In this document: in pieces, positions 3,190 to 64,000 of the stretch | Layout: the number at the start of each line of letters is the position of its first letter | How positions within the stretch are numbered: the first letter of the stretch is position 1 | Origin: Minisyncoccota bacterium | Lineage (GTDB): Bacteria; Patescibacteriota; Minisyncoccia; Phycocordibacterales; UBA9973 | NCBI GenBank assembly: GCA_018061145.1 | Contig: JAGOUR010000004.1 | Span: forward strand, 10,625 to 74,624 | Length of the DNA: 64,000 nt | Direction: 5' to 3' | The notes under the pieces: generated by a model | What the model saw: the letters and a program-made list of their open reading frames with translations, nothing else | Told to the model about the DNA's origin: nothing | Databases searched by the model: none | Program-made: the position numbers and the translations under genes

Positions 3190-4035
3190 CTATTTCTTTG
3201 CTTTACCGACACGTCGTCGTGAGACAATGTGCATATTTGAGTATTTCTTTGGTGTACGAGTCTTCTGGCCCTTTCCAGATGGCTTTCCCCACATAGTCTT
3301 GGCACGGCGTAGACCTCGTCCTTGAGCTCCTTCACCTCCTCCGTATGGGTGGTCTACAGGGTTCATGGCACTTCCACGTACTGTTGGGCGGATACCCTTC
3401 CAGCGTGAACGTCCAGCTTTACCAAAATTCTGAAGATGGAATTCTCCATTTGAAACTTCACCGATACATGCCCAACAGTTTTCAGAAACTTTTCGAACTT
3501 CTGTAGATGGCATCTTGATGTTTGTAAAACCATCATCGTTTGCAACTACTTGTCCGAATACTCCTGCTGCACGTACTAGTTTTCCACCGTTACCTGGCTT
3601 TATCTCGATGTTGTATACAAATGTACCAACTGGGATAAACTTTAGAGGAACGCGGTTTGCAACTGTAAGTGGTGCTTTTTCGCCAACGATAAACTTGTCC
3701 CCTACTTTTACAGACTTTGGAACCACAACATAGCGCTTTTCTCCGTCAGCATATACTGCAAGACCGATAAATGCATTTCTGTTTGGATCGTATTCTATAG
3801 AAGTTATCTTTGCTGGGATATCATGCTTGTTGTACATAAAGTCAACTTCACGATATAGACGCTTGTGACCACCCCCCTTGTGGCGAGTAGTGATGCGACC
3901 CTGGTGATTGCGTCCAACTGAACGCTTGAAACCATGAGTCAAAGATTTTTCAGGTGTACTTGTTGTAAGAACATTGCGGTATGAGACAGTAGTCTGATGA
4001 CGCTTTGATGGTGTTGTAGGTTTATATGTTTTCAT
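3190..4035 (-). CDS. rplB: 50S ribosomal protein L2
   Basis: Matches L2 throughout, including the GGGHKR motif. Confidence 0.95.
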   Translation of the reverse strand: MKTYKPTTPSKRHQTTVSYRNVLTTSTPEKSLTHGFKRSVGRNHQGRITTRHKGGGHKRLYREVDFMYNKHDIPAKITSIEYDPNRNAFIGLAVYADGEKRYVVVPKSVKVGDKFIVGEKAPLTVANRVPLKFIPVGTFVYNIEIKPGNGGKLVRAAGVFGQVVANDDGFTNIKMPSTEVRKVSENCWACIGEVSNGEFHLQNFGKAGRSRWKGIRPTVRGSAMNPVDHPYGGGEGAQGRGLRRAKTMWGKPSGKGQKTRTPKKYSNMHIVSRRRVGKAKK

Positions 4036-17430: not shown

Positions 17431-18102
17431 TTACTTAGTTAGGTCTAATTTGTGAATGACAGCATTTGCTGTATCCACTTTAAATTCGATAGTATCCTTG
17501 TACTTTAAATTTCCAAGATCCAAATCAAATTTAAATTTTTCTGGTAAAGAATTGTAATCGAATTGGTCAAAATAAGAGTAAGGTAGCTCGGAGTATCTAT
17601 CAAAACCACTCTTACCCAGAGTCTTACCATAAAAATGGGTCACCAAGAATGTAGATTCAATGTATTTTGGATATCCGTCAACTTTTGCCAACTTGCCATC
17701 CTCGTACATAACCACTATGGCATTACCATTACCACCAATACCTGCTGGACCTTGATTGTAATCCCAACCACAGTTTACGTCCAACTTTTTAAGAATAGCT
17801 TCATCATTGCAACGGATCTCGTGCTTATCGTTGCCATCTTTGTCACGGACGTCCACATAAGGACCATAACTAAGATAGTAGCAAAATACCCATCCGGTGA
17901 ATCTAGCGCCTCCAACAATGATTGTTTCGAACATCTGCAGTTTCACTGGAGGCTGAGGAGATACTACAACTACCGCCTGTTTTGGGGGAGGTGTTGTCTT
18001 GTAACCACAAGTTAGACACTCCTTTTGACAAGAACTCGATGCAAAGATAAATGCAAAGATCATCGCTATCGAAATAGCGGAAAAGAAAAAGTTATTTTTC
18101 AT
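17431..18102 (-). CDS. Secreted protein or lipoprotein, hypothetical
   Basis: Signal peptide ending FASSSCQKEC (lipobox-like SSC). No recognisable domain. Confidence 0.4.
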   Translation of the reverse strand: MKNNFFFSAISIAMIFAFIFASSSCQKECLTCGYKTTPPPKQAVVVVSPQPPVKLQMFETIIVGGARFTGWVFCYYLSYGPYVDVRDKDGNDKHEIRCNDEAILKKLDVNCGWDYNQGPAGIGGNGNAIVVMYEDGKLAKVDGYPKYIESTFLVTHFYGKTLGKSGFDRYSELPYSYFDQFDYNSLPEKFKFDLDLGNLKYKDTIEFKVDTANAVIHKLDLTK

Positions 18103-18157
18103 TTTGTTTTTATTTAATTTTGCTCATATTATATCATATTTGAACCCTATTTGTCAA

Positions 18158-18228
18158 CCCCGTTAGAAGCAGGTCGCCCCAAGGTGACCGTAGCACTCGC
18201 ATGCTAGCGAGGGCGGCTTCTAACGGGG
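18158..18228. repeat. 71-bp element with perfect 13-bp terminal inverted repeats ccccgttagaagc / gcttctaacgggg (a member of the CCCGTTAGA family)
   Basis: Both arms read directly from the sequence. GC-rich interior. Confidence 0.6.
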
Positions 18229-18239
18229 TCAATGGGGTA

Positions 18240-18335
18240 AATCCCCCCTCCCATTAGCCAAGGGGAGGATTGAGGAGGGGTGAATAATTTTAGCACCCCC
18301 TCTCAGTCTCCCCCTTAGCAAAGGGGGAGAGGAAA
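18240..18335. repeat. GC-rich double-hairpin element (copy 1), REP/MITE-like
   Basis: Hairpins cctccc-attagccaag-gggagg and ctccccc-ttagcaaa-gggggag. About 85% identical to the copy at 61670..61762. Confidence 0.6.
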
Positions 18336-18439
18336 TCAAACCTACGGGTACTCCTCAAGAGGATAATTATCTGTTATACTAACCCTACAATTACCAATAA
18401 TTCCCTAGTCACTAGCAACTAGTCACTAGAACCTAATCC

Positions 18440-19024
18440 ATGTTAATCCCAACAGTTATAGAGAAGACAATGAATGGTGAACGAGCATATGATATATACT
18501 CTCGCCTTTTGAATGAACGCATTATTTTCCTAGCGGGTCCAATCGATGACCACATGGCCAATCTGGTCATAGCCCAGCTACTATATCTAGAGCATACTGA
18601 TAATAAGAAGGATATCTCACTATATATCAATTCCCCTGGTGGTTCTGTGACTGCGGGACTGGCTATCATCGATACTATGAATTTTATAAAGAGTGACGTA
18701 TCTACTATCTGCGTAGGTATCGCCGCATCTATGGGAGCACTAATCCTATCTGCAGGTGAAAAAGGTAAAAGATTTACTCTACCGAACTCTGAGGTTATGA
18801 TCCACCAAGTGATGGGAGGAGCCGAGGGTCAAGCCAGTGATATCGCGATAAATGCAAAGCATATACTACGAAGCAAGGATACATTGAACAAAATCCTAGC
18901 AAAAAATACAGGCAAGAAGTTTGAAGAAGTAGAAAAAGATGCAGATCGCGACTACTGGATGAATGCAGATGAAGCCAAGAAATACGGCATCATCGACCAG
19001 ATAATCACAAAAGTAAAAAAGTAA
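18440..19024 (+). CDS. clpP: ATP-dependent Clp protease proteolytic subunit
   Basis: Catalytic triad context [12 protein letters not shown] and DRD. Typical ClpP length. Confidence 0.95.
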
Positions 19025-24799: not shown

Positions 24800-25285
24800 A
24801 CCCAGACGTGAAAATACACCAGCTTTGGTCTGGTGTATCTCCATGTATTTCGCATTCGTAAGCCGAATTCTGTTTCTAAGTGAATATTTATCTGGGCCAT
24901 ATGTCGCCATATAGCTCGAGCGATTCTTTCCAACCTAGGTCGGAACACGATCTTGCACTCGCGTAAGGATTTAGCCGTTTCACTAAAACTTTCAGTTTTA
25001 GTGTACCGCATAGCTCAAAGAGCGACGTGGTACATATTTACCTTATAGTTTTATTCGCCCCACTTCGCTTTCGCTACGCGGGGCGCTTTTCGGCTTTCGC
25101 CTAAAAGCGTCTCTGCTCGCACCTCTATCGTTACCGACGGCAGGCGTTACCTGCTACGTTTAATGAATTTGCATTCACTGAGTGTTCGGACTTTCCTCCC
25201 CTTCTATTCTTGCGAATAGTCGGAGCATTCACTCGCTGCGGAACAAGACTAACAATACCATAATCTGGGAATTAAGCAAGAAAAA
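24800..25285 (-). ncRNA. rnpB: RNase P RNA (bacterial type A-like)
   Basis: Minus-strand reading shows P4 5' strand GGAGGAAAGUCCGAAC (rc of 25181-25200), AGCAGGUAACGCCUGC (P10/11 GGUAACGCC), the ACAGAAUUCGGCUUAC 3' conserved region (rc of 24858-24873), and P2 agugaau/auucacu pairing. Ends are approximate. Confidence 0.7.
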
Positions 25286-26643: not shown

Positions 26644-26714
26644 TGCGGGATAGGAGAATCGAACTCCTGTCTCATCCTTGGCAAGGACGTGTTCTACCAC
26701 TAAACCAATCCCGC
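26644..26714 (-). tRNA. tRNA-Gly (anticodon GCC), CCA not encoded
   Basis: Hand-folded cloverleaf: acceptor gcgggat/atcccgc, anticodon arm cgtcc-ttGCCaa-ggatg, T-arm aggag-ttcgatt-ctcct. Confidence 0.85.
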
Positions 26715-26796
26715 ATTTGCCTATTATATTTTAAAATATATGGCTTTGTTGACACGATAAACCACTAAACCAATCCCGCATACGAAACCGAAACTG

Positions 26797-26867
26797 TCGG
26801 GGTGCAGGGAATTGAACCCTGTTCTCACGGTCCCAAACCGCGTATACTACCGGTGTACTACACCCCG
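26797..26867 (-). tRNA. tRNA-Pro (anticodon UGG), CCA not encoded
   Basis: Acceptor cggggtg/caccccg, anticodon arm cgcgg-ttTGGga-ccgtg (G37), T-arm caggg-ttcaatt-ccctg. Confidence 0.8.
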
Positions 26868-26914
26868 AAACGTCTTTCTATAGTAGCATATTTTAAACAA
26901 AAAACAATGCCCTC

Positions 26915-27322
26915 CTAAAGTATTATATTCTCCATCCTTTTTACTCTCGCTTTTCTACTCTCCAGATCCAGATAAACCACCAATATATCAAATTGCCATT
27001 CCCTATTCCCTATCCTGTTATGTATTAGATATGTCTGTATAACTCGAGCCAGTCTCTGGCGCTTCCACATGTGGACATTCTCTTCTGGTCTGAACCACCC
27101 ACTTTTAGTTTCATGTGTAACATAATCCAGATCTGATACAGATTTTGCCTTTACTTCTATAAAATATAGAGAATTCCCCTTTTCAGCTATTATATCTACC
27201 TCCCCCCATTTCTTTGTATAGTTGCGCTCCAATATAATAAAGCCATGTTTCCCGAGAAACATACAGGCTACATCTTCGCCCAATTCCCCTATTTTTTGAG
27301 TATTTGAAGTAAATTTCTTCAT
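26915..27322 (-). CDS. yraN: YraN/UPF0102 family endonuclease (PD-(D/E)xK fold)
   Basis: GELGEDVACMFLGKHGFIILERNYTKKWGEVDIIAEKGNSLYFIEVKAK matches the UPF0102 signature (GE.GE..A...L...G..IL.RN.R...GEIDII..FVEVK). Confidence 0.7.
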   Translation of the reverse strand: MKKFTSNTQKIGELGEDVACMFLGKHGFIILERNYTKKWGEVDIIAEKGNSLYFIEVKAKSVSDLDYVTHETKSGWFRPEENVHMWKRQRLARVIQTYLIHNRIGNREWQFDILVVYLDLESRKARVKRMENIIL

Positions 27323-27440
27323 CCCGTTAGAGATAGGAAGTCCTTAGACTTCCGTATCTTACTTATTAATAGTAAACAATACAAATTTATCTATATACTA
27401 TATATTATAATTAAAATAAAAACGAAACATCTCTAACGGG
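27323..27440. repeat. 118-bp MITE-like leader cassette with CCCGTTAGAGAT / ATCTCTAACGGG terminal inverted repeats, abutting the yraN start codon
   Basis: Termini at 27323-27334 and 27429-27440. Internal hairpin ggaagtc-cttag-gacttcc. Near-identical 40-nt block shared with the element at 35790..35905. Confidence 0.65.
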
Positions 27441-27815
27441 ATTCATATTGTTACATGTGTAACTAATAAAGTGTGCCACGTGAAACGTTTTTCTATTTAT
27501 TAGACATCCAAACCATTATATAATATGTCTTTCACTTAAATAGCTTGATAAATAATGGTATTATAGATATTGTCTTATCTCTTTCGTGTATGACTTTATC
27601 CAATAAAAGCCTGTCTTATAAACAATACACACATAGTTATCCACATAAATGCTTATTTTGTAGGGGATTAACCTGGGGATAAAGGGACAAATCAAGGACG
27701 TCCATTAAAATAGATCTAGTAAATTTTGTGGTCAGGCATAATTTTCTGCTGAAAATTTGCACGACCCTGGCTCACGTCGTCACGTTCCACCTCGCACAAA
27801 ATGTCCGACATTTTG

Positions 27816-27887
27816 TGCGCCTGGCAGGAATCGAACCCACATCATCGATTCCGAAGATCGATGTCCTATCCATTGAACGACAGGCGC
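27816..27887 (-). tRNA. tRNA-Arg (anticodon UCG), CCA not encoded
   Basis: Acceptor gcgcctg/caggcgc, anticodon arm tcgat-ctTCGga-atcga, T-arm gtggg-ttcgatt-cctgc (two G-U pairs). Confidence 0.75.
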
Positions 27888-28024
27888 ATAGCAATACATA
27901 TATTATACATAAATGTTGCACAATTACAAATAATCCTTTATTTTAAAGGATTATTCCCAGATAATTGCATTTTAAATAAAAAAATACTATAATCTATCTA
28001 TTGTTTAATTGACAATATACATAT

Positions 28025-28095
28025 GCGGGATTAGTTTAGTGGTAGAACTACAGTTTTCCAAACTGTTGGCAGGCGTTCGATTCGCCTATCCCGCA
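28025..28095 (+). tRNA. tRNA-Gly (anticodon UCC), CCA not encoded
   Basis: Acceptor gcgggat/atcccgc, anticodon arm acagt-ttTCCaa-actgt, T-arm aggcg-ttcgatt-cgcct. Confidence 0.85.
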
Positions 28096-28269: not shown

Positions 28270-29808
28270 ATGAAACTACAACCTATAAACAACTCAAATA
28301 TACCTGAATATGTTACACATGTAACATCTACCCTCGAAAACGCTGGTTTCGAGGCATTTCTCGTGGGAGGCTGTGTCCGAGACCTGATGATCGGTAGGGA
28401 AGTAAAGGATTGGGATATCACAACCAACGCCACTCCAGAGGAAATCATCCCACTGTTTGAAAAGACAATATACGAGAACAAGTTTGGTACAGTGGGTGTA
28501 TGTATTCCAAAGGTTACACATGAAACTGTTTCAGGTGAAACTAACTCTACCTCACCCAAACCCTCTCCCGCGCCAGAAGAGGGGGCAATTCAGTACCACA
28601 TAATGGAGGTCACACCGTACAGAACTGAAGCAAAATATAGCGATAACAGGCACCCAGATGAAGTGAAATTCAGCCGGGATATATCCGAGGATCTTCAGAG
28701 ACGAGACTTCACAATCAATGCCATGGCATACAATATAGATAAAGGACAGGTGATTGACCTTTATAAAGGACAACAAGACCTAACGGACAGTGTTATACGG
28801 GCCGTGGGTGCCCCGTCCTTGAGATTCCAGGAGGATGGTCTAAGAATGCTCCGTGCAGTACGATTCGCCTCACAGCTCTCCTTTATGATTGATTCCGATA
28901 CTATGACCGGGGCTGTGGATAACTCACATCTTTTAAAAAATATTTCTGGAGAGAGGATTCGTGATGAATTCATGAAAATCATCGAGAGTCCTCGTAGTGT
29001 CGAGGGTGTAGGCATGCTACAAAAACTCGGACTACTAAAATACATCGTTCCTGAACTCGAAGAGGGTATAGGGTGCGATCAGGGTGGGGCACATATCTAT
29101 GATGTATTCACTCACTGCCTAGGTGCACTAGGTCATGCTACTGACAAGGGATACTCTACCGATATCCGCCTGGCTGCACTGTTCCACGATATAGGAAAAC
29201 CTAGGACTAAGAGAAAGGGGATAAAGAAACCTACATTCTATGGCCACGAGGTAGTGGGTGCGAGGATGACAAAGGTGATCATGGAAAGACTCAAATTCCC
29301 AAAGGATACAATAGAATTTGTATCAAATATGGTTCGTCGTCACATGTTCTTCTCCGATACAGAGCAGATCACTCTCTCTGCAGTGCGCAGAGTGATACAG
29401 AATGTCGGGCCAGAACATATCTGGGAACTGATGGAGATACGTGAATGCGACAGGGTAGGGATGAAAAAAGCTGAGGCTCCATATAGACTGAGGAAATATC
29501 ATGCGATGATCGAAGAATGTCTACGCGATCCGATATCTGTCGGTCAGCTCGTAGTAGACGGCAACATTATGAAGAACGAATTAGGCGTAGCACCTGGACG
29601 TCGGATGGGATGGATTCTCCACTCATTACTAGAGGAAGTCCTCGAAGACCCCACAAAAAACACTCGAGAATATCTAGACATCCGCGTGCGAGAGTTGAAT
29701 GATATGACTGATGAGATATTAAAAGAGCTTGCCGATAAAGCAAAAGAACAAAAAAATTTACTTGAGGAAGAAGAGATCGCTGAATTACACAAAAAACACA
29801 AGGTGTAG
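28270..29808 (+). CDS. cca: CCA-adding tRNA nucleotidyltransferase with C-terminal HD domain
   Basis: Pol-beta NTase motif GGCVRDLMIG...DWDITT, RNA-binding region, and HD motif (LFHDIGK). Carries a ~35-aa S/T/P-rich insertion near aa 90-125. Confidence 0.8.
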   Translation: MKLQPINNSNIPEYVTHVTSTLENAGFEAFLVGGCVRDLMIGREVKDWDITTNATPEEIIPLFEKTIYENKFGTVGVCIPKVTHETVSGETNSTSPKPSPAPEEGAIQYHIMEVTPYRTEAKYSDNRHPDEVKFSRDISEDLQRRDFTINAMAYNIDKGQVIDLYKGQQDLTDSVIRAVGAPSLRFQEDGLRMLRAVRFASQLSFMIDSDTMTGAVDNSHLLKNISGERIRDEFMKIIESPRSVEGVGMLQKLGLLKYIVPELEEGIGCDQGGAHIYDVFTHCLGALGHATDKGYSTDIRLAALFHDIGKPRTKRKGIKKPTFYGHEVVGARMTKVIMERLKFPKDTIEFVSNMVRRHMFFSDTEQITLSAVRRVIQNVGPEHIWELMEIRECDRVGMKKAEAPYRLRKYHAMIEECLRDPISVGQLVVDGNIMKNELGVAPGRRMGWILHSLLEEVLEDPTKNTREYLDIRVRELNDMTDEILKELADKAKEQKNLLEEEEIAELHKKHKV

Positions 29809-31818: not shown

Positions 31819-32760
31819 CTATTTCCCCTTACTGTGAAACTTCTTGTGCACATCACGTAACTGTGAGTCTGTCACATGGGTATAGATCTGTGTAGTGGCA
31901 ATATTCGCATGACCGAGCATCATCTGCACAGAGCGGATATCTGCGCCATTGGATAGTAAATCAGTAGCAAAGCTGTGGCGGATCACGTGAGGGGTGACCT
32001 TTTTAGATATACCTGCTTTGATGGCATAGTATTTCACGATACGCTCAATAGATCGGGGAGTGAGGCGTCCAGAATCAGAGCGGTTGCGAGAATTCTGCAC
32101 AAATAGCGGCTCGTCTAGATCCTTTCTATTTTTTAAATATACTTTGATTGCCTCCTTGGCTGTAGGGGATAGGAATACCACTCGTACCTTTTCACCCTTT
32201 CCGCGGATAGAGAATTCATCTTTAGATAGATCAAGATCTCGATTCAATGAACATAGTTCAGAGAGACGAAGTCCGGTAGAAAAGAATAGTTCCAGTATCG
32301 CCTTGTCGCGAAGACCCTTTGGTGTAGTCATTTCAGGTGCATTCATCAGGCGAGAGAGCTCCTCGACTGATATCAGATCCAAATGTCGCTCTTTTATCTT
32401 GGCTAGTTCGATCTTGTCGGGGGATAGGGATGTGACACTGCGTTTCATCATGTATTTTAGGAATGCACGCAATGCGATGAGGTGATAATTCTGTGTATTT
32501 TTCTTTAGTGTCGCCGAGGACTGTCCGCGGACTTTCATGCCAGGGAGTCTATTTATATGCAACCTGAATTCACGAATCATATCGTCGGTGATATCAATGG
32601 GATCTTTTGCTTTTGAAATTTCTAAAAAGCGAGAGATATAGTGATCATAATTGCGCACAGTCAGCAGACTATTGCCCTTTTCTATCTCTACGTGCTCGAG
32701 GAATTCTCTTTTTAATTTTTCTAGTTGTGTCATATTAATGTCGTACAATAATTTTACCAT
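31819..32760 (-). CDS. xerD: Tyrosine site-specific recombinase XerC/XerD family
   Basis: Catalytic R..HRGY pattern (RHSFATDLL, LGHANIATTQIYTHV). N-terminal SAM-like core-binding domain. Confidence 0.85.
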   Translation of the reverse strand: MVKLLYDINMTQLEKLKREFLEHVEIEKGNSLLTVRNYDHYISRFLEISKAKDPIDITDDMIREFRLHINRLPGMKVRGQSSATLKKNTQNYHLIALRAFLKYMMKRSVTSLSPDKIELAKIKERHLDLISVEELSRLMNAPEMTTPKGLRDKAILELFFSTGLRLSELCSLNRDLDLSKDEFSIRGKGEKVRVVFLSPTAKEAIKVYLKNRKDLDEPLFVQNSRNRSDSGRLTPRSIERIVKYYAIKAGISKKVTPHVIRHSFATDLLSNGADIRSVQMMLGHANIATTQIYTHVTDSQLRDVHKKFHSKGK

Positions 32761-48461: not shown

Positions 48462-50033
48462 ATGTCATTCTCGCGAATATATTCGGCGCAGACACATCTA
48501 CTAAAAGGCAAAGTAGTAACTATCGAAGTGGACATCACAAAGGGGACACTCCATGCATTTACTCTTGTCGGACTACCAGACAAAGCGGTCGATGAATCCA
48601 AAGACCGAATGAGCTCAGCGCTCAAAAATTCTGGATTCAATTCTCCTAAAAATCAAAATCAAAAAATAGTAATCTCGCTGTCCCCGGCAGATTTAAAAAA
48701 GGAGGGACCGTATTTTGATCTGGGTATCGCACTGGCATATCTACTATCCGCAGGGGAGATTGATTTTGATCCAGAGGGAAAAATATTTCTAGGCGAGCTA
48801 TCACTCAATGGTGAACTACAAAATATAAAAGGTGCACTACCCCTGGCAGAGGAGGCCAAGAAGCGGGGCTTCAAAGAAATATTTTTACCAATCGGCAATG
48901 CGACAGAGGCAGCACTAGTGTCAGGGATAAAAATATTTGGAGCCCGAAATCTCCGCGAAGTCATCGATCATCTATCTACCCCGCGCCGTGACAAAAAGGG
49001 AAATTTACTAGAGAAAGAATTGAATAAAATCACACAGACCCCCGAGACAAAAATAATTTTTGAAAATAAAAAACATGCGATAGATTTTTCTGACATCCGG
49101 GGGCAAGAGGGTGCAAAGCGTGGATTAGAAATCGCAGCAGCCGGTGGACACAACATAGCGATGAGTGGATCACCCGGCACAGGCAAGACGATGCTCGCAC
49201 GAGTCTTCTCGCATATCCTACCAGAATTATCCAAAGAAGATATTTTAGAAATTACAGGTATTCATTCTGTCGTCGGATTACTCGATGGAGCACTCGTGAC
49301 TGAATCTCCATTCCGCGCACCACATCATACTGCGAGTTATGTATCGATGATCGGTGGTGGCACAAATCCAAAACCAGGCGAGGTCACCCTCGCACACAAG
49401 GGAGTACTCTTCCTCGATGAATTTCCAGAGTTCGAGAAAAAAGTTCTCGAGTCGCTACGCCAGCCACTCGAAGACAATATAGTATCCATCTCTCGCGCGC
49501 GAGGGTCTGCAATTTTTCCATCAAATTTTATTCTAGTAGCTGCGATGAATCCCTGCCCATGTGGCAATCGTGGTGACAAGAAAAAAATGTGCATCTGCAA
49601 ACCGATGGATCTGGATCGCTACAATAGGAAACTCTCCGGACCGATTCTAGATCGTATTGATATCTGGGTAAATGTATCATCAGTAGACTATGACAAGCTA
49701 GCCAGTGGAGGAGTCGAAGGAGACAGAACAGAGACTATCAAAGAGCGCGTAGCCCGAGCCAGAAATATCCAGGAGAAGAGATTTAAGAGTGCCACTAGGA
49801 ATATAAAAACAAATAGCGAGATGAATGTAAAAGAATTGAATGCATTTGCGCCACTATCGCCCGAGGTGCGCGAGATACTACACAGCAGTGCCGAGCGTCT
49901 CCAACTATCTGCCCGTGCATACCACAGAGTGATAAAGCTCGCCCGTACTATCGCAGACCTCGAGAGCTCTGAGCACATCACAACCCCACATATCCTAGAA
50001 GCCCTGCAGTATAGACCGCGGACACAGAATTAA
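48462..50033 (+). CDS. comM: ComM/YifB-family Mg-chelatase-like AAA+ ATPase
   Basis: Lon-like N-domain. Walker A GSPGTGKTM and Walker B VLFLDEFPEF. C-terminal Mg-chelatase subunit ChlI domain. Confidence 0.85.
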   Translation: MSFSRIYSAQTHLLKGKVVTIEVDITKGTLHAFTLVGLPDKAVDESKDRMSSALKNSGFNSPKNQNQKIVISLSPADLKKEGPYFDLGIALAYLLSAGEIDFDPEGKIFLGELSLNGELQNIKGALPLAEEAKKRGFKEIFLPIGNATEAALVSGIKIFGARNLREVIDHLSTPRRDKKGNLLEKELNKITQTPETKIIFENKKHAIDFSDIRGQEGAKRGLEIAAAGGHNIAMSGSPGTGKTMLARVFSHILPELSKEDILEITGIHSVVGLLDGALVTESPFRAPHHTASYVSMIGGGTNPKPGEVTLAHKGVLFLDEFPEFEKKVLESLRQPLEDNIVSISRARGSAIFPSNFILVAAMNPCPCGNRGDKKKMCICKPMDLDRYNRKLSGPILDRIDIWVNVSSVDYDKLASGGVEGDRTETIKERVARARNIQEKRFKSATRNIKTNSEMNVKELNAFAPLSPEVREILHSSAERLQLSARAYHRVIKLARTIADLESSEHITTPHILEALQYRPRTQN

Positions 50034-50049
50034 TACACCTCATCCGCCC

Positions 50050-50140
50050 TACGGGCACCTTCTCCTGGAGAGGAGAAGGGGGATTAATACGAATTAGAAT
50101 TTCCTCCTCTCCTTTCCAGGAGAGGGTCAGGGTGAGGTTG
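50050..50140. repeat. GC-rich double-hairpin element (copy 3, diverged) immediately upstream of the DUF559 gene
   Basis: ccttctcc-tggag-aggagaagg and cctctcc-tttcc-aggagagg. Confidence 0.55.
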
Positions 50141-50149
50141 ATTTATTTT

Positions 50150-50539
50150 ATGAAAAGAATCATCAACAATTTTAAGAGAAAAGAAATTAGAAAAAATCTC
50201 AGAAGAACCCAAACACCACAAGAGATAATCCTTTGGGCTCGACTCCGTAATAATCAAACAAATTTTAAATGGAAAAGGCAAGTAAGCATTGGATCATACA
50301 TTGCTGATTTTTATTGTCACAAAAAACTCCTAGTAATTGAGATTGATGGGTCACAACACCTAGAAAACAAAGAATATGACATAGAGAGGAGCAAATTTTT
50401 TCTTGATTTAGGGATTAGAACAATAAGATTTTGGAATAATGAAATTAATACAAATATAGATGGGGTGATACTAAAAATTGAGAGCGAATTAAAGAATACA
50501 CCTCACCCCAGCCCTCTCCTGAAAGGAGAGGGTGAATAA
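50150..50539 (+). CDS. DUF559 endonuclease-domain protein (Vsr-like / PD-(D/E)xK fold)
   Basis: RRTQTPQEIILWARLRN...IGSYIADFYCH...LVIEIDGSQH...DIERSKFLLDLGIRTIRFWNNE matches the DUF559 signature. The C-terminal 14 aa are encoded by a repeat hairpin. Confidence 0.65.
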   Translation: MKRIINNFKRKEIRKNLRRTQTPQEIILWARLRNNQTNFKWKRQVSIGSYIADFYCHKKLLVIEIDGSQHLENKEYDIERSKFFLDLGIRTIRFWNNEINTNIDGVILKIESELKNTPHPSPLLKGEGE

Positions 50540-58909: not shown

Positions 58910-58938
58910 AGAAAAACGCCTTTGGCGTTTTTCTTTTG
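58910..58938 (+). terminator. Rho-independent terminator after the 102-aa gene
   Basis: aaaaacgcc-tttg-gcgttttt followed by cttttgtt. Confidence 0.6.
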
Positions 58939-58956
58939 TTCTGTATAATAGAACGC

Positions 58957-60891
58957 ATGGAGGATTATCTAAATACACTAAATGAAAAGCAGAAAGAAGC
59001 GGTCCTTCAGACAGAGGGGCCGCTTCTGATTGTAGCAGGGGCCGGAGCAGGAAAGACCAAGACTCTAACACATCGAATCGTACATATAGTACATGGTGGA
59101 GTGAAGCCAGAGAATATACTAGCAGTTACTTTTACCAATAAAGCCGCAAAAGAGATGAGAGAAAGAGTGATAGGACTACTTTCACAGAGGGAAAACGGTG
59201 CCCCCGCTGGTGGACATAGTGGTTATCCATTCGTTTCTACATTTCACGCGCTCGGAGTAAGAATTATAAAGGAGAATGCGCACTTACTAGGCCTGACAAA
59301 GCACTTTGTCATAGCAGATGACGATGATTGCATGAAGATTATCAAGGAATCTCTCAAGACCCGCGACATAGACCCAAAGCAGTATGAGCCGAGAAAGATC
59401 AAGAGTATCATTTCTCGAGCAAAGGGGGATTTTATAAACATAGATAAATTCTCAAATGAAGTAAAATCAGGATTTGAAAGTGTGGTCGCTACTATCTGGC
59501 GTGACTATGAAAGAACTCTTAAATCAGAAAAGGCTCTAGACTTTGATGACCTATTGATCGAGACTGTGATGATTTTGAAAAAGTATCCAGAAGTAAAACT
59601 ACACTATCAAAATCAATGGCAGTATATCCATGTGGATGAATATCAGGATACCAATGAAGTGCAGTATGAGATGGTAAAGCTACTCGTAGGACCCAGGGAG
59701 AATATCTGCGTAGTGGGTGATACAGATCAGAATATTTATAGCTGGCGCGGAGCAAATATAAAGAACATGCTTCATTTTGAAAAAGATTATCCGAAAACTG
59801 TGATTGTGATGCTCGAGCAGAATTACCGATCCACAAAGAATATAATCGAGGCAGCAAACAATGTGATAAACAAAAATGTATTCCGAGTGCCAAAGACACT
59901 CTTCACAGAAAAGGAGACAGGGGAGGATATCACTATATACGAAGCCTTCGACGAGATATATGAGGGGCAGTATGTAGCAAATCAGATCCATGAATTGCTC
60001 CGTGAAAATAAACCCGAAGATATAGCTATACTCTATCGTGCGAATTTCCAATCCCGCGTATTAGAGGAAGCGATGCTTTCAAAAAATATCCCGTACCAAG
60101 TACTCGGTACAAAATTCTTCGACAGAAAGGAGATCAAAGATGTCCTATCTTATCTACGTGCAGCATTGAATCGTGATAGCCTGTCAGATATCAAGAGGGT
60201 GATCAATACTCCAGCTCGTGGTATCGGCAAGGTCACACTAGTCAAATTATTTTCTGGCGGATTAAATGATTTACCCGCCGGCATGCAGATGAAGATCAGC
60301 AATTTCTACACTCTCCTAGATGAGATTCATGAATACGCGATGGTGAACAAGCCTAGTGAAATAATAAAATTCATCATTGAGCGTAGTGGACTAGAAGAAG
60401 AACTTAAAAAGGGCATTAGCGATGACCTAGAGAGACTAGAAAACATGAAGGAACTAGTGACACTCGCCATCCGATACGATGGTTTCGATATCGAGGAGGG
60501 TATAGATAAAATACTCGAAGATGCAGCACTATCTAGTGATCAAGACAGCCTGATAAACAAGCCAAAGCCCGGCGGTGTACGCCTGATGACTGTGCATGCA
60601 TCCAAAGGTCTTGAATTCAAATACGTATTTATCACAGGCCTTGAAAAAGATTTATTCCCGCACTCACGCCCCGGTGGAGGTAAGAAGGAGGATAGCGAAG
60701 AGGAGCGCAGGCTATTCTATGTAGCACTGACTCGTGCCGAGAAAAAGCTATATCTATGCTATGCATCACTACGAACAATATTCGGAATGAAGCAGGTGAA
60801 CACCCCTAGTGAATTCCTAGAAGACATACCATCACACCTAGTAGAGTATGATAGGGGTGGCGGAAATGGAGAAAGGATTGTGTATATTTAA
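58957..60891 (+). CDS. pcrA: ATP-dependent DNA helicase PcrA/UvrD (superfamily 1)
   Basis: Walker A AGAGAGKTKTLTHR. Motifs II (DEYQDTN), III, IV and VI (VALTRAEKKLYL). Start at MEDYLNTL. Confidence 0.9.
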   Translation: MEDYLNTLNEKQKEAVLQTEGPLLIVAGAGAGKTKTLTHRIVHIVHGGVKPENILAVTFTNKAAKEMRERVIGLLSQRENGAPAGGHSGYPFVSTFHALGVRIIKENAHLLGLTKHFVIADDDDCMKIIKESLKTRDIDPKQYEPRKIKSIISRAKGDFINIDKFSNEVKSGFESVVATIWRDYERTLKSEKALDFDDLLIETVMILKKYPEVKLHYQNQWQYIHVDEYQDTNEVQYEMVKLLVGPRENICVVGDTDQNIYSWRGANIKNMLHFEKDYPKTVIVMLEQNYRSTKNIIEAANNVINKNVFRVPKTLFTEKETGEDITIYEAFDEIYEGQYVANQIHELLRENKPEDIAILYRANFQSRVLEEAMLSKNIPYQVLGTKFFDRKEIKDVLSYLRAALNRDSLSDIKRVINTPARGIGKVTLVKLFSGGLNDLPAGMQMKISNFYTLLDEIHEYAMVNKPSEIIKFIIERSGLEEELKKGISDDLERLENMKELVTLAIRYDGFDIEEGIDKILEDAALSSDQDSLINKPKPGGVRLMTVHASKGLEFKYVFITGLEKDLFPHSRPGGGKKEDSEEERRLFYVALTRAEKKLYLCYASLRTIFGMKQVNTPSEFLEDIPSHLVEYDRGGGNGERIVYI

Positions 60892-61061
60892 CTGCTTCGT
60901 AGATTAATTCTCGGACTCAGCACGAATATTTTTCTGTTGAAAAATTTCTCTGCTCGTCGCTCAAGAAAATAATATTCGTCAACTCATTTATTTTCTAAGC
61001 TCCTGCGCAAGACTTCGCTCGAGAACAAATCTACTTCGCAAAAATATGGTAGTATAAAAAC

Positions 61062-61937
61062 ATGATTCATAAAGCTAAAAAATCACTAGGGCAAAACTTT
61101 CTCAAGAGCAAACCAGCATTGAATATGATGATTAGTGCCGGCGAGGTAGGGAATGCAGATACTATAGTAGAGATCGGTCCGGGTAAAGGCGCTCTCACAG
61201 AGAAACTCCTTGAAAATGCGGGACATGTCATTGCGATTGAAAAAGATCGTGATCTTATAGACTTTCTGAAAGAAAAGTTCGCGACAGAAATAGAAAACGG
61301 GAAATTTGAATTAGTGCAAGGGGATTGTCTGGAGTGGAATCCAAAAGTACTAAAAGGTTCAAACTACAAGCTAATAGCAAATATCCCATATAATATAACC
61401 GGTGCAATACTAAAAAAATTCCTCTCTGAAGAAAATCAGCCAGAGCGCATGGTGCTATTAGTCCAAAAGGAAGTAGCCGAGAGGATAGTGGCCCGAGACG
61501 GCAAGGAGAGCATACTGTCTATCAGTGTAAAAGCATACGGCACACCAAAATACATGATGAAAGTAGAAAAAAGATTCTTTTCTCCGGCACCAAAGGTAGA
61601 TTCTGCTATTATCGCTATAACAGCTATATCAAAAAAGAATTTTGAATCCGAGTCCCCCCTCCCATTACCAAGGGGAGGGCTGGGGAGAGGTGAATTAATT
61701 AAGAACCCCCTCACAGTCTCCCCCTTAGTAAGGGGGAGAGGGACTCAGAATGCAGAATCCCGATTTTTTGAAATACTAAAAGCTGGATTTGCCCACAAGA
61801 GAAAGGTGCTGAAGAAAAACCTTGAAGACTCACTATCAAAAGAAAAAATAGTCGAATTGTTTAAAACCCACAATATAGATGAAAAAGTTAGAGCTGAGGA
61901 TATAAAGCTCCAAAACTGGCTAGATTTCATAAAATAA
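61062..61937 (+). CDS. rsmA: 16S rRNA (adenine1518/1519-N6)-dimethyltransferase KsgA/RsmA, carrying an in-frame ~31-codon insertion derived from a GC-rich repeat element
   Basis: SAM-binding LGQNFL...EIGPGKGALT, NIPYNIT, C-terminal FAHKRKVLKKNL. Residues SPLPLPRGGLGRGELIKNPLTVSPLVRGRGTQ are encoded by repeat copy 2. Confidence 0.85.
   Translation: MIHKAKKSLGQNFLKSKPALNMMISAGEVGNADTIVEIGPGKGALTEKLLENAGHVIAIEKDRDLIDFLKEKFATEIENGKFELVQGDCLEWNPKVLKGSNYKLIANIPYNITGAILKKFLSEENQPERMVLLVQKEVAERIVARDGKESILSISVKAYGTPKYMMKVEKRFFSPAPKVDSAIIAITAISKKNFESESPLPLPRGGLGRGELIKNPLTVSPLVRGRGTQNAESRFFEILKAGFAHKRKVLKKNLEDSLSKEKIVELFKTHNIDEKVRAEDIKLQNWLDFIK
61670..61762. repeat. GC-rich double-hairpin element (copy 2), located inside the ksgA coding sequence
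   Basis: About 85% identical to 18240..18335. Hairpins cctccc-attaccaag-gggagg and ctccccc-ttagtaa-gggggag. Confidence 0.65.
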
Positions 61938-61972
61938 AAACCTTACAGGTCGGACCTGTAAGGTTTTTATTT
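61937..61972. terminator. Bidirectional terminator after ksgA
   Basis: aaaccttacaggtc-g-gacctgtaaggttt with flanking A-run and T-run. It shares an acaggtcNgacctgt core with the terminator at 24273. Confidence 0.7.
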
Positions 61973-61979
61973 TATTTAA

Positions 61980-62360
61980 TTAGAAAGATGTTCCTATATA
62001 GTTAATTGTTCCTTTTGAGATAGGTAGCTCGGTGCATTTCGGAGCTACCCCAATCAAACAAACACCAGCAGAAGAATACTTGCCCAACAAAAAACTACTT
62101 GGTTTTACTGAATTTCTAGCATAAGTCTTTACCGAGCTAGAATATAAGTACGTACCACTACTACTACCGGGACCCTTTATTGTAACCTGAGAACTACCAT
62201 CAGTATTGCAAGTACAAGAAACCATCGATAAAATACGCCCTCCAAAATAATTACCTCCAACAGAAGCCTCTGTCTCTGTATATGGGAATAGTGGTGAGAT
62301 AATCAAACAAATCAAGATCAATAAAATGAGTTTTTTTAAATCTACTAGAATATTTTGCAT
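61980..62360 (-). CDS. Small secreted hypothetical protein
   Basis: Signal peptide LILLILICLIISPLF. Ser/Gly/Thr-rich. Confidence 0.35.
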   Translation of the reverse strand: MQNILVDLKKLILLILICLIISPLFPYTETEASVGGNYFGGRILSMVSCTCNTDGSSQVTIKGPGSSSGTYLYSSSVKTYARNSVKPSSFLLGKYSSAGVCLIGVAPKCTELPISKGTINYIGTSF

Positions 62361-62382
62361 ACATATATGATATAATATTTTT

Positions 62383-63330
62383 GTGAATAAAGAAAATAAA
62401 AAATCTTATCTCCCTAGTCACGAATTCGTGGCTAGAGTCATCATCCTCGTCCTACTACTAGGGGCTGCAGTGGGGGGCAATGCTCTGTATAAATACTTTA
62501 AAAACAAAAAAGATAATAAATCCACATCTATCCCCACAGACACTATCAGACTCGAGAGTGGTCTGACTGTTTCTGATGTGATGTCAAAGGATTCAAATAA
62601 AAATGGTATAGCAGACTGGGAGGAATCTCTATGGGGGCTAGACCCAAAAGAGGACGGTTTTTCAAATAAAACAATAATAGACAATAAAAAGAAAGCCCTA
62701 AATGCACAAAACGGCACAATGGACACAAATACAGAAGAAAAAGAGGACGAAACAAAAAAATTAGCTATAGAATTCTTCTCTTCTTTTATGTCTCTCAAGG
62801 AATCTGGAGCTTTAAATACAAATGCTGTCGAAAATCTAACTTCAGTCATAGGGCAAGAAGTGGGGAAAACTGATGCACCCGATACATATATTGGTAACAG
62901 CATAAAAACAACCAAATCAAACAAGGAAAATCTTGCAAAATATCAAAAAGACCTTGAAAATATAATAACAAAACATGAAAATAGATTGCCGGGCACAGAG
63001 CTCGCGATAATGGCCGAAGCAATGGAAAATGAAGACAGTGCTCTCATCGGAGACCTAGCACAGATATCGAACGAATACAGAAGTCTAGCAAAAGACATGA
63101 CCACGGTAACAGCGCCGATGAATGTAGCACAAAATCATCTTTTGCTTATAAACACATACGACAAGATCGGAATGTCTATCCTCAAGATGTCCGATGCTCT
63201 GACTAATCCTATAGCAGCAGCTACAGGAACCGCGATGTATACAAGATACACAAATGAGATAAACCAAATAGTAGAAGAAATGAAGACAACATTTATAGAT
63301 AATGGTATACTTGAAAAAGATGCGAACTAG
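62383..63330 (+). CDS. Membrane-anchored hypothetical protein
   Basis: N-terminal TM (VIILVLLLGAAVGGNALY). No motif. Confidence 0.35.
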   Translation: MNKENKKSYLPSHEFVARVIILVLLLGAAVGGNALYKYFKNKKDNKSTSIPTDTIRLESGLTVSDVMSKDSNKNGIADWEESLWGLDPKEDGFSNKTIIDNKKKALNAQNGTMDTNTEEKEDETKKLAIEFFSSFMSLKESGALNTNAVENLTSVIGQEVGKTDAPDTYIGNSIKTTKSNKENLAKYQKDLENIITKHENRLPGTELAIMAEAMENEDSALIGDLAQISNEYRSLAKDMTTVTAPMNVAQNHLLLINTYDKIGMSILKMSDALTNPIAAATGTAMYTRYTNEINQIVEEMKTTFIDNGILEKDAN

Positions 63331-64000
63331 ATTTTACACACAATTTATATCGTTGTTTATTATCTTGCAATTAGTATTTGCTCCTATTGTTATAGTGGCA
63401 GCAGAGACTGCGGGAGCGGATGCATTTGGAGGATTCGGATCACTCATAGGATGCAAGGGTAGCACTGCTCGAGGTATGGGTGGAGCTCTCAGTTCTATCT
63501 CTGGATTATTTACAAAAAACTCAGACGAAACAAAATCAAAAAACATAACAGACGGATTCCTAAAATCTCAAACAACAAGTGGATCTATTGGTGCTTCTGC
63601 TGTGCCAATAGAAAACAAAGATATATCTCAGACGGCAGATAGTACAAAAAAATCACTGACCCTCGAAGAAAAAGAAAACACAAGAGAAGAATGCCTAAAT
63701 GGTCTAGCATACAGAGTAGCAAAATTCGCACTGGCAAAGCTCACCGAGCAGACAGTGAACTGGATAAACACTGGATTTAATGGTGATCCATTCTTTGTAC
63801 GTGATCCACAATCATATTTCAAAAGTATCGTAGATAGTGAAGTAAATTCAATACTAGGACCGATCAGTAAATACCAAGACAAAGAAACATACCCATATGG
63901 CAGAGATTTTGCAAGGGCTTTTCTACAGAATAGAACAAATAGCTACAGTAATTATTCTCAATCAAACCTGAATAGATATATGATGAAAAACACCACCCCG
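63320..64000 (+). CDS. Secreted hypothetical protein, 3' end truncated by the window edge (absent from the ORF track)
   Basis: Hand translation from the ATG at 63320 (MRTRFYTQFISLFIILQLVFAPIVIVAAETAGA...) is open to the window end. It overlaps the previous stop by 11 nt. Confidence 0.35.
   Translation, partial: MRTRFYTQFISLFIILQLVFAPIVIVAAETAGADAFGGFGSLIGCKGSTARGMGGALSSISGLFTKNSDETKSKNITDGFLKSQTTSGSIGASAVPIENKDISQTADSTKKSLTLEEKENTREECLNGLAYRVAKFALAKLTEQTVNWINTGFNGDPFFVRDPQSYFKSIVDSEVNSILGPISKYQDKETYPYGRDFARAFLQNRTNSYSNYSQSNLNRYMMKNTTP

Follow-up and report, generated by a model that had tools for sequence, protein, structure and literature searches.

The stretch of DNA analysed here (64 kb in length, hereafter the window) carries a ksgA (rsmA) gene that is lengthened, without loss of its reading frame, by a short GC-rich palindromic element (Table 1). 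ORF 61062-61937 was assigned to KsgA/RsmA by using an RrnaAD methyltransferase domain, the SAM-binding GxGxG and NIPY motifs, and a helical C-terminal domain as the criterion, and the Pfam match, a match to KsgA in the PDB (E 1e-32), AlphaFold2, and Foldseek all agreed on this assignment. The motifs EIGPGKGALT, NIPYNIT, and FSPAPKVDSA are all intact. A preliminary description of this DNA had reported a GC-rich MITE/REP-like repeat placed in-frame in an otherwise intact ksgA, which was borne out by an empty site in a close relative, by further copies both between and within genes, and by the intact catalytic motifs and fold; the translated string quoted there is also present in the ORF.

Table 1. 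Features of the window that bear on the ksgA insertion
Feature	Position	Strand	Remarks
ksgA/rsmA ORF	61062..61937	+	291 aa including the insert; Pfam PF00398, E 1.7e-53
Inserted palindromic element, subfamily A	~61645..61751	+	empty site in L001; nhmmer E 1.5e-29; 86.8% identical to 18242-18332
Hairpin H1 of the ksgA element	61657..61679	+	CCCTCCC / GGGGAGGG; consensus structure from 19 copies
Central hairpin H2 with AT-rich loop TGAATTAATTAAG	61682..61714	+	loop has stop codons in 5 of 6 frames
Hairpin H3, TCTCCCCCTT-AGT-AAGGGGGAGA	61717..61739	+	compensatory changes separate the two subfamilies
Intergenic copy, subfamily A	18238..18339	+	between a 223-aa ORF (17434-18102, -) and clpP (18440-19024, +)
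Extra half-element	50028..50085	-	directly after the comM stop codon
Left half-element (H1 and 5' strand of H2)	50099..50150	+	upstream of DUF559; nhmmer E 1e-4
DUF559 (Vsr-like / PD-(D/E)XK) gene	50150..50539	+	PF04480, E 2.1e-32, profile positions 3-108 of 109
Right half-element (3' strand of H2 and H3)	50489..50536	-	3' end of DUF559; nhmmer E 2e-5

By comparison with solved KsgA structures using HMMER, the window protein splits into two matches, one on each side of the insert, with residues 5-186 and 231-285 corresponding to residues 22-208 and 220-279 of B. subtilis KsgA and approximately 33 extra residues lying between the domains. The insertion site is therefore the linker joining the methyltransferase domain and the C-terminal domain. 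A confident KsgA fold was predicted with the insert in place: the AlphaFold2 model, built from a 121-sequence alignment, has a mean pLDDT of 86.7 and a pTM of 0.82, both domains exceed a pLDDT of 90, and the best Foldseek matches are KsgA structures. Residues 198-225 of the insert, on the other hand, have a pLDDT below 50 and no secondary structure, and this low-confidence loop lies between a strand (181-187) and a helix (226-242). The model suggests that the insert probably forms a disordered surface loop, and we infer that it is translated and that the enzyme is still active. It has been reported that KsgA contacts rRNA helices h24/h27/h45 through loop1, loop12, and loop14 (bioRxiv 10.1101/2021.09.15.460497), from which the interdomain linker is distinct. 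Placement of the insert in the rRNA-contacting loop12 was considered and rejected, since loop12 holds K169 (B. subtilis numbering), far from the linker at 209-219.

The closest uninterrupted ortholog (P0002) was found at locus L001, on a Paceibacterota contig of 258 kb that shares the gene order uvrD-ksgA-ORF126-ORF315 with the window. The two ksgA genes share 93.5% DNA identity and differ by a gap of exactly 96 nt, which provides a clean empty site (AAGAATTTCAAGGATCAG) and confirms the existence of an uninterrupted gene among relatives. The net gain in the window is 96 bp, or 32 codons, with ends uncertain by about 6 bp, and the inserted residues (about 196-228) read ...ESPLPLPRGGLGRGELIKNPLTVSPLVRGRGT... 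The insert noted earlier is thus real, with a length of 32 rather than about 31 residues; the position first given for the element (61670-61762) starts some 20-25 bp too far to the right. All ten of the nearest KsgA orthologs (81-93% amino acid identity) lack the segment. An identical insert is present in an independent assembly, L006 (Logan SRR12762275), so that it is not the assembly chimera that had been raised as a concern.

The history of this allele is complicated by recombination. The ksgA genes of L006 and the window differ only in a tract at 61094-61235 and at position 61916, and the two insert-bearing alleles are identical over 61236 to 61915. Although the dN/dS value between them is 0.118, all differences except 61916 fall within that 5' recombination tract, so that the value says nothing about selection after the insertion. 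In addition, identity to the sister genome drops from 98% over 60958-61642 to 86% over 61763-64000, with the switch exactly at the ksgA insert, and between 60958 and 64000 identity to L001/L115 varies blockwise from 86% to 98%. The ksgA locus is thus a recombination mosaic, and the insert may have been brought in on a recombined segment instead of having transposed within this lineage; as the insert coincides with a breakpoint, such transposition is not demonstrated. No unambiguous target-site duplication could be found by comparing the filled and empty ksgA sites. The recent mobility suggested in the preliminary description is accordingly upheld insofar as the insertion is polymorphic among relatives approximately 86-98% identical in DNA over the region they share, and is weakened by the breakpoint and the possible arrival by recombination.

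The palindromic repeat family

A BLAST search of the ksgA element against the window returned a single other full copy (61653-61741 versus 18242-18332, 86.8% over 91 columns, E 8e-15); the preliminary description had put the identity to the intergenic copy, at 18240-18335, at about 85%. Exact-motif searches of the element gave no matches in 100 shuffles. The sequence is GC-rich, with inverted ends of the GAATTCC...GGAATTC type, and its folding energy is -53 to -61 kcal/mol (z -3.8 to -4.3). Across the family, copies are 90-105 bp long, with inverted ends like TGAATTCC...GGAATTCA and an AT-rich centre, TTAATTAA. By using RNAalifold on 19 copies, three local hairpins (H1-H2-H3) were identified with 96.3% of positions paired, compared with 64-79% in slid controls. 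Six pairs show compensatory double changes, a number that was reached in 2 of 500 shuffles. Two subfamilies (A and B) are set apart by compensatory changes in H3, and the ksgA copy of the window groups with the intergenic copy of the same window in subfamily A.

Further members were recovered with an nhmmer profile built from the copies and a pattern scan of 185,579 species genomes, which together yielded at least 19 full copies at 14 loci. Within this search, the family was recovered in Paceibacterota only, including three Paceibacterota MAGs, and its copy number is so far low, as seen in the genome fragments examined. Most of the pattern matches lie in GC-rich Proteobacteria; these, which lack a DUF559 gene within 8 kb, were regarded as unrelated or as chance hits. 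Among these (L007-L099), several genomes of Bradyrhizobium, Methylocystis, Pararhizobium, Rhizobium, and Lysobacterales matched the pattern more than once each, which may reflect unrelated GC-rich repeat families or chance.

No consistent direct repeat could be found across 22 copies, a possible TT being indistinguishable from the AT-rich background. No Rfam family was found at the intergenic copy and no gathering-level match anywhere in the window, the ksgA copy included; Rfam produced only sub-threshold, miRNA-like matches to generic hairpins. A concatenated forward-plus-reverse peptide profile, used to look for host proteins, had no match at E <= 10, and a scan of viral contigs found nothing.

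Other structured sequences were also observed in the window. An unrelated 73-nt GC-rich palindrome (18157-18229, CCCCGTTAGAAGC...GCTTCTAACGGGG) adjoins the intergenic copy, folds at -47.7 kcal/mol (z -5.9), and has neither an Rfam family nor a second copy in the window. A GC-rich (65% or higher) structured intergenic stretch of about -30 kcal/mol lies at 25054-25146, by the tRNA cluster at 26644-28095.

Insertions in coding sequences

The distribution of the repeat is both intergenic and genic. Of the 11 copies or fragments in loci ascertained by the DNA pattern, nine lie between genes; the other two are an in-frame copy in tsaD and a copy at a second site in ksgA. The tsaD copy adds about 30 residues in comparison with solved TsaD, and a half copy encodes a loop in the uvrD gene of L003. 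In ksgA itself, the full-length element is found at an identical nucleotide position (site 1, after AATTT) in the window/P0001, P0012, and P0013. These carriers occupy three scattered places on the KsgA ortholog tree, each nested among orthologs without the insert, and the copies in P0012 and P0013 belong to subfamily B while that of the window belongs to subfamily A, implying independent insertions. Insertion at site 1 was thus recurrent. The second site (after ILxF) is likewise occupied by both subfamilies (L005/L060 and L121).

Some Pro/Gly-rich linker insert is present in at least 11 of the 121 KsgA orthologs, the full-length element at site 1 in only four (window, P0001, P0012, and P0013). 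All full-length ksgA copies have the same orientation and the same frame. Only one of six frames is free of stop codons in the window copy, and this is the frame in use; one or two of six are open in the other copies. The small number of open frames results from the AT-rich centre of the element, which is full of stop codons. The reuse of an identical nucleotide position speaks for a preference at the level of the DNA target in addition to a selective filter; a candidate junction reads ...A(A/G)TT|TGA...

A number of other loops and inserts were seen in the same genes or nearby. A degenerate sequence resembling a half-element, at 28545-28589 (ACCTCACCCAAACCCTCTCC...GAGGGGG; weak, nhmmer E about 1), is translated as ...STSPKPSPAPEEG... 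inside the nucleotidyltransferase of the CCA-adding enzyme ORF (28270-29808) and may be an old, decayed in-frame half copy. The uvrD/pcrA loop that holds the half-element in L003 (NSPSPYQGEGWGGVG) corresponds to residues about 85-97 of the window gene (58936-60891); it is longer and Gly/Pro-rich in the window and L001 (NGAPAGGHSGY), where it could be a decayed remnant of the element. A different, N-terminal KsgA insert of 15-23 aa occurs in P0006, P0010, P0013, P0025, P0031, P0059, P0096, P0100, and P0117. Bounded in many orthologs by a duplicated KAKKSLG motif (MIHKAKKSLG-LKKLPSRSFSPDTSF-KAKKSLGQNFL), it is encoded in L003 (10001-10140) by AT-rich DNA with small hairpins, not by the GC-rich element.

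DUF559 genes within related palindromes

A DUF559 gene in the same window (Table 1) occupies the position of the H2 loop in an element-like palindrome, as indicated by alignments of its flanks, and H3, the right hairpin, supplies the codons of its C-terminal tail (NTPHPSPLLKGEGE). The right half-element is identical to a solo half in the sister genome L115, in which the DUF559 cassette is absent (ComM 98.9% and TrmB 98% identical). The two genomes differ here by an indel of 462 bp with an 11-bp direct repeat (AATACACCTCA) at its borders. This repeat is common to the extra half-element after comM and to positions 50495-50505, and the solo right half remains in L115, whose state could just as well have arisen by deletion between the direct repeats. 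Another candidate for an empty DUF559 site, L111, had been taken from a gene table and was rejected because its sequence and that of the window are identical.

Four further DUF559 genes in unrelated contexts (L104, L106, L156/157, and L158) are similarly flanked, giving five contexts in all. The flanks in L156 are two whole copies of the element, and the left half of one is nearly identical to the ksgA copy. Moreover, hairpin-encoded tails are present in most of 120 DUF559 homologs, many of which are on very short contigs. No DUF559 gene was found within about 4 kb of the loci ascertained through the MITE-like repeat, and no transposase, RAYT, or Y1_Tnp gene was found in the 64-kb window. The only recombinase-type gene in the window encodes a XerC/D-like tyrosine recombinase (31822-32760, -) with no adjoining repeat copies. 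In L156, the DUF559-plus-element cluster is followed, about 200 bp further downstream, by an ORF for a 93-aa GIY-YIG nuclease (3600-3881), a second small nuclease there.

The link between DUF559 genes and the element, though strong, is an association only: the nuclease might be a helper, it might home into resident palindromes, or it might have been lost by deletion between repeats. The leading hypothesis, of fairly low probability, is that these Vsr-like nuclease genes nested in palindromes are autonomous or helper partners of the element. With a similarly low probability, the ksgA insert might be a non-autonomous member of a previously undescribed, target-preferring class of nuclease-associated palindromic mobile elements in Patescibacteria.

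Interpretation and comparison with known systems

The best explanation, with a probability of roughly 80%, is the in-frame insertion into the ksgA linker of a non-autonomous, GC-rich palindromic repeat of about 100 bp, tolerated as a selfish element in the manner of the Rickettsia palindromic element (RPE). Such an insertion would survive because it sits in the sole stop-free frame of the window copy, and because some 32 Pro/Gly/Arg-rich and probably disordered residues in a surface linker would leave both folded domains undisturbed. The family would be mobile or recombinogenic within Paceibacterota, with the ksgA position and the second ksgA site colonised independently by different subfamilies. 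This recurrent colonisation points to the joint action of a preference for particular DNA targets and a strong selective filter; target preference would explain the presence of different subfamilies at the same ksgA nucleotide, with new peptide loops being added to conserved informational enzymes. In the mechanism tentatively proposed above, the full-length form would carry a DUF559 endonuclease in the loop of its central hairpin, a REPIN/RAYT-like partnership with a PD-(D/E)XK nuclease in place of a transposase, and movement may proceed by nicking or cutting of DNA by this nuclease, followed by repair-mediated copying.

The same data were weighed against several other explanations. It is improbable, though the most credible of these, that the Arg/Gly-rich, RGG-like peptide (PRGGLGRG...VRGRG) has been exapted, giving KsgA one more loop for RNA contact or regulation that protein-level selection now retains. 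In its favour are the basic character of the peptide in an rRNA-binding enzyme, the linker inserts that recur in the orthologs at the frequency given above, and the similar in-frame peptides of the diverged lineages of P0012 and P0013. However, the frame in use is imposed by stop codons in the others, disorder is predicted for the peptide, and the conservation of the peptide is inseparable from that of the DNA hairpins. Most orthologs, the ten closest included, lack the insert, and the linker is not among the reported rRNA-contact loops.

A still less probable explanation is that the insertion is young and effectively inactivating, so that a dispensable ksgA is a pseudogene in the making in which stop codons have not yet accumulated. 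KsgA is universally conserved, yet E. coli can do without it, so that an insert is more easily tolerated; its earlier designation as essential was therefore an overstatement. Moreover, there is no post-insertion divergence with which selection could be tested, and expression could suffer from a hairpin of -53 kcal/mol in the mRNA. The motifs are nevertheless all intact, as are both domains, the insertion site is a loop, the allele is present in two recombinant backgrounds and samples, and comparable inserts persist in the intact ksgA genes of several diverged lineages.

It is very unlikely that the segment is an intervening sequence, intron-like or intein-like, which is removed after transcription or translation, or an assembly artefact. 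Patescibacteria are known for such sequences in rRNA and tRNA genes (PMC13011429). However, 96 nt (32 aa) falls well below the size of any group I/II intron or intein, no nucleophile, HN motif, or intein block could be found in the 32-aa insert, and Rfam returned no intron at the intergenic copy. The length is also an exact multiple of three and lies in the only open frame, and independent assemblies carry the insert. Least probable of all is an origin of the segment within KsgA, which the preliminary description had reasoned would follow if distant orthologs carried it; such orthologs do exist (P0012 and P0013, 66-68% identical, with a similar peptide at the same site), but the inference that intergenic copies derived from ksgA fails, as about 110 of the 121 orthologs have no linker insert, the four full-length carriers are each nested among non-carriers, the site-1 copies belong to different subfamilies that also hold intergenic, tsaD, and DUF559-flanking copies, and the element is a self-contained palindrome with conserved ends.

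The finding has several implications. The KsgA linker and second loop, together with loops in TsaD and UvrD, provide a natural experiment on where conserved enzymes tolerate insertions of about 30 residues. The reuse of one nucleotide and the nesting of DUF559 genes offer a testable lead on repeat movement without a transposase and on the role of the very widespread, uncharacterised DUF559 nucleases. A practical consequence concerns CPR metagenomes, whose gene calls and assemblies such inserts inflate and break up. In the searchable literature, coverage of which is incomplete, no description of palindromic coding elements or MITEs in Patescibacteria, or of DUF559-repeat associations, could be found.

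Among known mobile systems, free-standing or Vsr-like (EDxHD) homing endonuclease genes resemble the DUF559 genes in being small nucleases that are present or absent at a fixed locus in close relatives and could spread by cleavage and repair. The DUF559 gene differs in that it is embedded in a palindromic repeat and not in an intron or intein. The REP/REPIN-RAYT system (PMC3337134, PMC3733652) shares with the element dispersed hairpin repeats, a single nuclease-type gene flanked by inverted copies, and non-autonomous doublets that outnumber the gene. However, the aligned copies end in neither a GTAG nor a CGTC tag, they also occur outside extragenic DNA, and the associated gene in the 64-kb window is DUF559 (PD-(D/E)XK/Vsr-like) and not an HUH Y1 transposase. 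The element is therefore not a REP or REPIN, as it has no such tag and, in the window, no RAYT, and is not confined to extragenic DNA.

In-frame coding insertions have also been reported for bacterial MITEs, such as ERIC, Correia, Nezha, and the Anabaena MITEs (PMC10969869). Like these, the element is small and non-coding, with inverted ends, dispersed copies, and occasional in-frame fusions. Differences are that no clear target-site duplication was found and that no parent IS encoding a transposase, DDE or otherwise, was seen in the window; a Vsr-like nuclease is carried instead by the related longer element, and only DUF559 genes share its ends. With neither a clear target-site duplication nor a transposase parent found, the element does not appear to be a classical MITE.

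RPEs are short palindromic repeats of about 100-150 bp found between genes and in-frame in unrelated housekeeping genes (Ogata et al. 2000 Science, 2002 Genome Res; reviewed in PMC10969869). In this reduced-genome bacterium, they code for a conserved peptide and occupy positions that the host fold can accommodate (PMC10969869). The ksgA insertion, which had been called unusual, is indeed so, but it is not unprecedented in view of these repeats. The likeness lies in a palindromic repeat that is both intergenic and in-frame in unrelated genes (two sites in ksgA, tsaD, and uvrD). The present element differs in its phylum (Patescibacteria/Paceibacterota) and in being a GC-rich sequence in an AT-rich genome, folded into three local hairpins, with different subfamilies repeatedly at the same nucleotide position of one gene; its copy number is low so far, and its full-length relatives carry a DUF559 nuclease gene. 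Because the taxon is different and the likeness is not based on sequence comparison, the element was not classified as an RPE. The RPE is its closest known analogue, at most an analogue by shared features, and protein-coding selfish palindromes, so far a Rickettsia signature, would thereby be extended to the ultra-small Patescibacteria (CPR).
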